A DNA stretch of 24,767 bases from Escherichia coli (lineage in GTDB: Bacteria; Pseudomonadota; Gammaproteobacteria; Enterobacterales; Enterobacteriaceae), in NCBI RefSeq assembly GCF_003334785.1, contig NZ_QOWV01000030.1; one strand, written 5' to 3'. The position numbers and the translations under genes are program-made. The notes under the pieces are model-generated. The model saw only the letters and a list, made by a program, of their open reading frames with translations, searched no databases and had not been told where the DNA came from. Shown piece by piece: positions 2 to 391 of this stretch. Within the stretch, counting starts at the first letter, position 1. Each line of letters begins with the position of its first letter.

Positions 2-352
2 CGCAATGTCCGGGCAAAATCAGGTTTAAACCGTTCGATACTGGATCAGGGCTGGTATGAAATGCGCCGCCAGCTTGCGTACAAGCAGCTCTGGCGTGGC
101 GGTCAGGTGCTTGCTGTTCCGCCAGCGTATACAAGCCAGCGTTGCGCGTACTGTGGTCATACAGCGAAAGAGAACCGCCTGTCACAAAGTAAATTCAGAT
201 GCCAGGTATGTGGATATACAGCGAACGCCGATGTAAATGGCGCTCGCAACATTTTAGCGGCGGGGCACGCCGTTCTTGCCTGTGGAGAGATGGTGCAGTC
301 AGGCCGCCCGTTGAAGCAGGAACCCACCGAAATGATTCAGGCGACAGCCTGA
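2..352 (+). CDS. insQ: 3' portion of an IS200/IS605-family TnpB (OrfB) gene, IS609 transposase B, also known as ydcM; 5' end lies outside the window
   Basis: Frame is open from base 2 to the stop at 350-352. Translation shows the TnpB C-terminus: CAYCGH...CQVCGY zinc-finger CxxC pairs followed by ADVNGARNI, a RuvC-III-like motif with an Asp. The track ORF 62..352 is the internal-Met part of the same frame. Confidence 0.8.
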
Positions 353-391
353 ACGTAGCAGGGATCCACGTCCTTCAGGGCGTGGAGGATG

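Follow-up and report, generated by a model that had tools for sequence, protein, structure and literature searches.

A predicted omega-RNA scaffold overlapping the 3' end of insQ and the right end of a chromosomal IS609 copy in Escherichia coli

Introduction

The window analyzed here, a stretch of 24,767 nucleotides (nt) of Escherichia coli DNA (contig NZ_QOWV01000030.1, assembly GCF_003334785.1), begins inside insQ, the tnpB gene of the insertion sequence IS609, and continues into ydcO, which encodes a transporter of the BenE family. The insQ part occupies positions 2–352 on the + strand and comprises the last 116 codons and the TGA stop (350–352), the start of the gene lying beyond the window; RefSeq labels it "RNA-guided endonuclease InsQ/TnpB family protein". 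E. coli chromosomes such as that of strain 720632 match the window at 100% over positions 1–700 and K-12 BW25113 at 99.9%, and the gene order in K-12 is tehA-tehB-ydcL-(tnpA pseudogene <-> insQ)-ydcO-sutR-rlhA. The same ydcL-ydcO junction of IS609 is found in 3264 of 5426 complete E. coli genomes (~60%), with a median of 2 IS609 places per genome.

TnpB proteins bind an RNA composed of the tnpB 3' end, the right end of the element and ~16 nt of flank, and cut targets that comprise a transposon-adjacent motif (TAM) and a match to the guide (PMC8612924, PMC10055086). The target is the scarless donor joint left after excision by the transposase TnpA, and the element is then re-copied from the sister chromosome (PMC8612924, PMC10055086). 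The IS609/insQ element, which is placed in the IS605 group of the IS200/IS605 family, and the guide-RNA mechanism of TnpB are already published, as is the detection by RNA-seq of transcripts that overlap the 3' end of tnpB in E. coli K12 (PMC4615843). This work describes the right-hand part of the ydcL-ydcO copy. It is very probable that window positions 1–395 represent this part of a chromosomal IS609 copy, in which the tail of the nuclease gene, an omega-RNA (reRNA) scaffold and the right-end signals for TnpA overlap.

The InsQ Protein

The features of its sequence assign InsQ to the TnpB family, of the RNA-guided RuvC nuclease type, with family models, catalytic triad and zinc finger in agreement. 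The translation of 2–352 is uninterrupted (116 residues and stop) and contains both CAYCGH...CQVCGY and ADVNGARNI, so the intact zinc finger and third RuvC aspartate of the original prediction are indeed there. The CCCC zinc finger of the TNB domain (CAYC...CQVC; 143–211, + strand) has its cysteine codons at 143–145, 152–154, 200–202, and 209–211, and these align to the cysteines of TnpB from ISDra2 of Deinococcus radiodurans, whose zinc-finger residues are C331, C334, C351, and C354 (PMC10097598). The third catalytic aspartate (230–232, + strand; ADVNGARNI) lies opposite D361 of ISDra2 (HDRDENAALNI).

Full-length InsQ (402 amino acids) was taken from strain 720632 or from strains 99.9–100% identical over the overlap. 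It aligns with ISDra2 TnpB (PDB 8BF8, 8EXA, 8H1J) over residues 3–376 (E 2e-54), and the RuvC triad is kept, GLDAG, VIEDL, and ANADVNG standing opposite D191, E278, and D361 (residue numbers from PMC10097598); the third residue is the sole one within the window. A mutated RuvC-I/II, raised earlier as a possible objection to a working nuclease, is not seen in the full-length copies. In the full-length copy of strain 720632 the NCBIfam model NF040570 (guided_TnpB) is matched at 379.8 bits (cut-off 100), while the narrower "exception" model NF038281 (IS200_TnpB) scores 306.8 bits, under its cut-off of 425. The Pfam domains HTH_OrfB_IS605, OrfB_IS605, and Cas12f1-like_TNB (the last with E 7e-23) are also present. 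IS609 TnpB was one of nine purified orthologs in a trans-cleavage screen (PMC12781874).

Boundary of the Element

The ends of IS609 were located by comparison of an occupied site (K-12), an empty site (strain A3) and the site of a second copy (in ytfA of O157:H7); in what follows a slash marks the insertion point. Strain A3 has no IS609 at ydcL-ydcO and reads ...GATGGCGCTTTTTAT/TATCGGTTTCTG... (also given as GCGCTTTTTAT/TATCGG). The occupied site of K-12 reads ...CTTTTTAT/CCGGTGCGCCGTAAAACCCCATCCTTCAGGGCGGGG...(IS609)...TCCACGTCCTTCAGGGCGTGGAGGATGTCAA/TATCGGTTTCTG..., in short form TTAT/CCGGTGCG...GATGTCAA/TATCGG, and removing the IS609 sequence restores the empty site exactly. In the O157:H7 copy in ytfA, which follows ...GGTTTAT/, the ends are the same and the right flank differs. 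IS609 is thus inserted 3' of TTAT without target duplication, TTAT being found at the left flank of two independent copies.

The last base of IS609 is window position 395, downstream of the tnpB stop. The comparison with IS609 ends advised in the original prediction therefore places the right boundary there, and not upstream of 352, where no room would have been left for a scaffold. The right-end tail GGATGTCAA (387–395, + strand), defined by the site comparison and by relatives, terminates in TCAA, which is the right cleavage site of IS608 as well (PMC5934647). The relatives, 80 in number, came from a scan of one genome per species (58–94% protein identity; Enterobacterales, Burkholderiales, and others), and 69 of them terminate in GAGGATGTCAA followed by unrelated flank. 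Insertion next to TTAT, lack of duplication and a TCAA right end are hallmarks of the "peel and paste" elements of the IS200/IS605 family.

Structure of the Predicted Omega-RNA Scaffold

Comparison of the relatives supports a scaffold of ~140 nt at about 252/257–395, encoded on the sense strand and ending at the boundary of the element. The region assigned to it (252–395, + strand) overlaps the last ~100 nt of insQ and extends to the last base of IS609. When the last 240 nt are aligned across relatives, near-invariant nucleotide blocks are seen although the proteins are only ~60% identical. The excess variation expected at third codon positions is present up to ~251 and gone at ~279–349 (periodicity is lost within window positions 272–349), and in the last ~25 codons of insQ the constraint seems to fall on the RNA and not on the protein.

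The structure comprises five helices with 37 pairs between positions 257 and 386, written by hand on a near-gapless MAFFT alignment of 28 sequences. In this alignment 94.0% of the cells are paired and 20 of the 37 pairs show double changes; none of 500 shuffles was as good, and 3' partners slid out of register gave 40–53%. A covariance model built on it finds a single match in the window (252–395, 161 bits) and 80 matches in relatives. The resulting alignment of 81 sequences, which is fitted to its own model and is for that reason secondary to the unbiased MAFFT result, has 95.4% of its cells paired and compensatory changes in 28 of 37 pairs (slid controls 39–56%). A scaffold in the tnpB 3'/right-end region, as originally proposed, is thus strongly favored by covariation.

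All helices lie on the + strand. Stem 1 (257–273) pairs 257–262 with 268–273 around the loop GGGCA (263–267); 4 of its 6 pairs are changed on both sides, in 28–38 of 81 sequences each. Since it covaries inside the codons for LAAGHAV, protein constraint leaves this stem unexplained. Module D (279–320), defined by covariation and by folding of each module, has an outer helix (279–283/316–320), a k-turn-like internal loop (284–286, 310–315) and an inner helix (287–289/307–309 plus 291–294/303–306) closed by a variable apical loop (295–302); in some relatives this apex is ~24 nt longer. It is followed by the linker AACCCACCGAA (321–331, + strand), a run of near-invariant columns in 51 sequences with 58–94% protein identity, where third-codon-position entropy falls to 0.2–0.4. 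Module E (332–356) is a hairpin with arms 332–334/354–356 and 336–342/347–353 and the loop GACA, whose 3' arm holds the tnpB stop; all 10 pairs are changed on both sides among the 81 sequences, each relative forming the same hairpin from a different sequence. The last helix, hairpin F (365–386), is described below with the transposon end. When the variable segments were folded separately, every relative formed stem D, hairpin E and hairpin F from different sequences and lengths.

Wobble pairs point to the strand that folds. The G.U and U.G cells (332) far outnumber the A.C and C.A cells (42), and the sense strand is therefore the one selected to fold. The tail GGAUGUCAA probably pairs with the loop of stem 1 as a short pseudoknot just 5' of the guide, a proposal made by analogy with ISDra2. 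The candidate pairing joins G264-G265-C266 to G391-U392-C393 and is compatible with 70–73 of 74 sequences.

Some approaches and pairings were set aside. Single-sequence minimum-energy folds (200–411 and 252–395) recovered E and F, paired the 5' part unlike the covariation structure and were dropped for stems 1 and D. With the first MAFFT alignment as input, RNAalifold failed to find hairpin E and, owing to indels, placed helix D out of register; it was superseded by per-module folding and realignment to the covariance model. An all-against-all scan for covarying single pairs was dominated by clade structure and uninformative, so that stacked runs alone were retained. The tertiary pairings UGGAG 283–287 with the loop of hairpin F, GUGG 282–285 with CCAC 324–327, and 327–330 with 359–362 around E are without variation and are not claimed.

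In a Hahellaceae genome the scaffold model matches weakly (26.9 bits) at a second place ~1.1 kb downstream of the full element; this match may be a degenerate or solo right end.

Relation to Known RNA Families

A permissive Rfam scan of window positions 1–1000 returned only three matches, all on the + strand and each linked to TnpB-associated RNAs: RAGATH-18 (279–322), HgcC (289–405), and sot0042 (348–386). RNAs derived from RAGATH-18 are guide RNAs of IS607 TnpB (PMC11061315), and HgcC and "sot" RNAs are transcribed from the 3' ends of tnpB genes and have in common a hairpin with a UUCA tetraloop (PMC4615843). The matches are related modules and not family members.

The closest resemblance is that of module D to RAGATH-18 (RF03064; reRNA of IS607-family TnpB, ISFba1). 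The match at 279–322 spans the whole model and keeps its CCUGUGGAG...UGAAGCAGGAA frame and the key pairs of its k-turn. The k-turn of module D consists of C309:G287, G313.A286, A314.G285, A315.G284, and G316.U283, conserved in 63–77 of ~80 relatives. In the k-turn of RAGATH-18 the key pairs are C:G at -1b:-1n, A:G at 3b:3n and G:U at 4b:4n (PMC8191799), and those of module D are identical to the crystallized ones. The two differ in that the apical part is 27 nt shorter in IS609 and in that the IS609 module forms part of the coding sequence of tnpB in an element of the IS605 group, whereas the literature ties RAGATH-18 to IS607 TnpB only. HgcC and sotRNA, from archaeal IS1341-type tnpB, share with IS609 the UUCA/UUUA tetraloop hairpin, the GGAGGAxGUCA tail and the position at tnpB 3' ends and right ends; this similarity is confined to the terminal hairpin region, and the scores are far under threshold.

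Predicted Guide and Target

In ISDra2 ~16 nt of flank after the scaffold serve as guide (PMC8612924). By the same rule the predicted guide of the ydcL-ydcO copy is the 16-nt sequence TATCGGTTTCTGTCAG (396–411, + strand), a flank antisense to the last ydcO codons. The 20-mer formed by TTAT and TATCGGTTTCTGTCAG occurs exactly and intact in strain A3, as its empty ydcL-ydcO site. Within the window, where the site is occupied, TCAA (2 mismatches from TTAT) stands before the match to the guide, and this difference would presumably spare the junction of IS609 itself.

If InsQ works like the TnpB proteins of ISDra2 and the Geobacillus elements, it would bind and trim a transcript that extends across the 3' end of tnpB and beyond 395, leaving ~16 nt of flank (396–411) as guide. 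The complex of InsQ and RNA would then cut TTAT followed by the guide match, which is the donor joint after excision and also the empty ydcL-ydcO allele of other strains. Such a cut would favor the re-copying of IS609.

Several observations weigh against this picture of a guide RNA and an active nuclease. The N-terminal two-thirds of insQ lie outside the window and were judged through near-identical strains. IS609 TnpB did not come out as the most active enzyme of the trans-cleavage screen (PMC12781874), and the IS608 TnpB of Helicobacter pylori was inactive in one interference assay (PMC10055086), so that a TnpB that looks intact may be inactive. The Rfam matches all score under their gathering thresholds (HgcC, RF00062, 22.2 against 50 bits; sot0042, RF02656, 15.5 against 88 bits; RAGATH-18, RF03064, 25.4 against 44.9 bits). 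Helix D carries an A288.C308 mismatch in E. coli IS609 copies where relatives have G-C or A-U, and the 264–266/391–393 pseudoknot varies on one side only, two-sided changes being absent among the 74 sequences. A promoter scan of window positions 1–700 gave no promoter-like site; the RNA would hence depend on the transcript of tnpB itself or on a promoter located beyond the window.

As to position 288, one of ten orthologous copies carries A288G, a change of Glu to Gly in InsQ that restores the helix D pair. The guide RNA has no annotation in the RefSeq record of BW25113, and a literature search on insQ together with small RNAs found nothing.

Decay of tnpA and Retention of insQ

The original prediction took the lack of a tnpA downstream as a sign of a solo or domesticated TnpB. 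That reasoning was faulty, as the tnpA of IS609 is divergent from tnpB and lies upstream of it, outside the window. In ten strains sampled across the identity range at ydcL-ydcO, tnpA is a pseudogene in all ten and insQ is intact in all ten; a common TTA>TGA nonsense change in tnpA was present in 4 of 5 copies checked. The decay of tnpA is a coincidence in relation to the solo-TnpB argument. The copy retains the full architecture of the element and intact nuclease residues, unlike known domesticated TnpB relatives. The copy in ytfA of O157 encodes an intact TnpA of 143 amino acids (NF033573, 145.7 bits). Because its tnpA is a pseudogene, the ydcL-ydcO copy is non-autonomous and cannot move by itself; a functional Y1 HUH transposase is thus absent from this copy in the ten strains, and the assignment to the IS200/IS605 family still holds.

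Polymorphism in insQ among the ten strains consists of 18 synonymous and 23 non-synonymous segregating changes. Per site this corresponds to a ratio of ~0.37, which departs from neutrality in a binomial test (p 0.0017); the counts are small and carry no transition/transversion correction. Pairwise ratios of non-synonymous to synonymous changes (pN/pS) range from 0.2 to 0.45. Variable sites number 2 in the 144 nt of the scaffold and 38 in the 1108 nt of the remaining insQ; the corresponding densities for the tnpA region and the ydcO flank were rejected, since indels had put the positions out of register. The copy looks old and non-autonomous, with a nuclease still under some constraint. Retention of insQ is compatible with a selfish model in which TnpA acts in trans from other IS609 copies, with gene conversion, or with a retained function, and the evidence does not separate these.

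One form of retained function would be a domesticated TnpB, or "allele guard", in which InsQ and its RNA persist by destroying empty ydcL-ydcO alleles, incoming or recombinant, or by acting on ydcO expression. TldR proteins, which are nuclease-dead TnpB-like repressors, are a known domesticated form in which the RuvC residues have been lost. InsQ resembles them as a TnpB-family protein whose gene holds a fixed place in the chromosome and has no functional transposase beside it, and an uninterrupted insQ beside a dead tnpA, the low per-site ratio, the quiet scaffold, the ~60% frequency of the junction and the identity of TTAT plus guide with the empty allele of other strains would all fit a domesticated role. 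InsQ differs from TldR, however, in retaining all RuvC residues and recognizable IS ends, and its guide is the insertion flank. Moreover, both ends are recognizable, so that other IS609 copies could still mobilize the element by providing TnpA in trans, and gene conversion from those copies (median 2 places per genome) could maintain insQ without selection; the counts from ten strains are small and uncorrected. Domestication of this kind is considered quite unlikely. The related idea, that in an old immobile copy insQ and scaffold are kept by selection, possibly as an allele guard or drive that cuts incoming empty alleles (arriving by conjugation, transduction or recombination) and so protects or spreads the occupied allele, is likewise put forward as an unlikely, slightly less remote, suggestion.

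The Terminal Hairpin

Hairpin F (365–386, + strand) has the arms TCCACGTCC and GGGCGTGGA, which form 9 pairs including one T.G around the 4-nt loop TTCA (UUCA as RNA). It stands between the tnpB stop (350–352) and the convergent ydcO stop (392–394, minus strand), where the original prediction had seen it; the 6 bp and 10-nt loop described there give way to 9 bp and a tetraloop, and the ydcO stop is itself inside IS609, since the last IS base is 395. Folded as DNA the hairpin reaches -7.7 kcal/mol (z -2.86; 3 of 200 shuffles equally good), so that one sequence alone is modestly above chance. The comparative evidence, drawn from aligned sequences, is decisive: 69 of 80 relatives have the hairpin followed by GAGGATGTCAA, and 7 of its 9 pairs show compensatory changes.

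As DNA, hairpin F is the subterminal imperfect palindrome of the right end and the expected top-strand site of TnpA; as RNA, it is the final stem of the predicted scaffold. A matching hairpin occurs at the left end of IS609, the two having a common CCTTCAGGGCG core. The left-end hairpin of the K-12 type carries an A.C mismatch that the O157 ytfA copy does not have.

Could the hairpin and its conserved surroundings be single-stranded DNA signals for TnpA only, with no functional RNA encoded? The near-identical core at the left end, the TCAA end shared with IS608 and, in relatives, a GAAT just 5' of the hairpin, as in the right guide sequence of IS608, are what such signals would look like, and covariation in hairpin F alone cannot tell a role in DNA from one in RNA. 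Four more helices covary, however, up to 139 nt inside the element and one of them within codons of the RuvC domain, whereas recognition by IS608 TnpA is confined to the subterminal palindrome, the 4-nt guide sequence and the cleavage site (PMC5934647). The long structure has no mirrored equivalent at the left end, wobble pairs are common in it, and the three Rfam near-matches are all RNA families. A purely DNA role is accordingly very improbable, and hairpin F most likely acts in both roles, as DNA for TnpA and as RNA in the scaffold. That the hairpin might be a bidirectional intrinsic terminator for the convergent insQ and ydcO, as a G+C-rich stem-loop between two stop codons could suggest, is excluded for practical purposes, because neither strand has a T-run after the stem (a terminator scan of window positions 1–700 was empty) and the element takes the hairpin along to unrelated sites (ytfA in E. 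coli O157; 69 loci in other genera), while in IS-free genomes ydcO ends directly beside a different hairpin downstream of ydcL (GCGCCATCGTTAGATGGCGCTTTTT).

Comparison With ISDra2 and IS608

The overlapping arrangement of nuclease gene, predicted RNA and transposon end finds its closest described counterpart in ISDra2. Both have a D/E/D triad and a CCCC zinc finger, and both have an RNA, predicted in the case of IS609, that is encoded by the sense strand across the 3' end of tnpB and the right end and takes its guide from the flank. The scaffold of ISDra2 consists of four stems, with a UUUA tetraloop at -20 to -17 and a pseudoknot adjoining the guide (PMC10097598); in IS609 the terminal stem also bears a U-rich tetraloop, which occupies -22 to -19 and so stands ~20 nt ahead of the guide. 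The 3-bp pseudoknot of ISDra2 has its partner in the loop of the first stem (ISDra2 -5 to -3; PMC10097598), as the candidate pairing of IS609 would, and in ISDra2 as well the RNA overlaps a poorly conserved C-terminal tail of the protein and not the catalytic core (PMC10097598). The differences are a target motif TTAT in place of TTGAT, a tnpA divergent from tnpB where that of ISDra2 overlaps in the same direction (PMC8612924), and a scaffold of ~140 instead of 116 nt, in which the k-turn stem D and the separate hairpin E resisted a one-to-one assignment to stems 2 and 3 of ISDra2.

With IS608 the likeness is in the DNA: each end has a subterminal imperfect palindrome, insertion takes place 3' of a specific tetranucleotide without duplication, the right end is cleaved at TCAA and, in most IS609 relatives, GAAT lies 5' of the right hairpin. 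IS608 carries tnpA and tnpB in the same orientation, unlike IS609. The target is TTAC in IS608 and TTAT in IS609, and E. coli IS609 has GGAT instead of GAAT.

Effect on ydcO

In ydcO (392–1606, minus strand) the insertion of IS609 fell within the stop codon. The empty allele reads ...CGA TAA and the occupied one ...CGA TAT TGA (window 392–397, minus strand); YdcO of the occupied allele acquires a C-terminal Tyr, and its TGA stop (392–394) is taken from the TCAA end of IS609. The coding sequence is longer in occupied genomes (1215 nt) than at the empty site (1212 nt). Annotated lengths of ydcO differ among strains (1035, 1176, 1209, 1215, and 1221 nt), which suggests different start calls or indels.

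A plasmid record (NZ_AP023207.1, positions 2–40) holds a 39-nt perfect copy of window positions 357–395, which cover the right-end hairpin and its tail, without an annotated gene; it is probably an IS609 divided by the start of the record.

Concluding Remarks

The analysis provides a concrete guide-RNA map for IS609 in the best-studied bacterium, with a predicted scaffold at 252/257–395, five helices, a k-turn, a candidate pseudoknot, a predicted guide and the predicted TAM TTAT. This map, the link to the RAGATH-18 k-turn and the survival of insQ beside a decayed tnpA amount to useful detail and are not discoveries. If confirmed, a RAGATH-18-type k-turn inside a coding sequence would link the guide RNAs of the IS605 and IS607 groups, which have been reported as distinct. 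At ydcL-ydcO the insertion of IS609 rewrote the stop codon of ydcO, and insQ outlives tnpA under apparent purifying selection, which makes this locus a convenient natural setting in which to ask what TnpB does after mobility has been lost.

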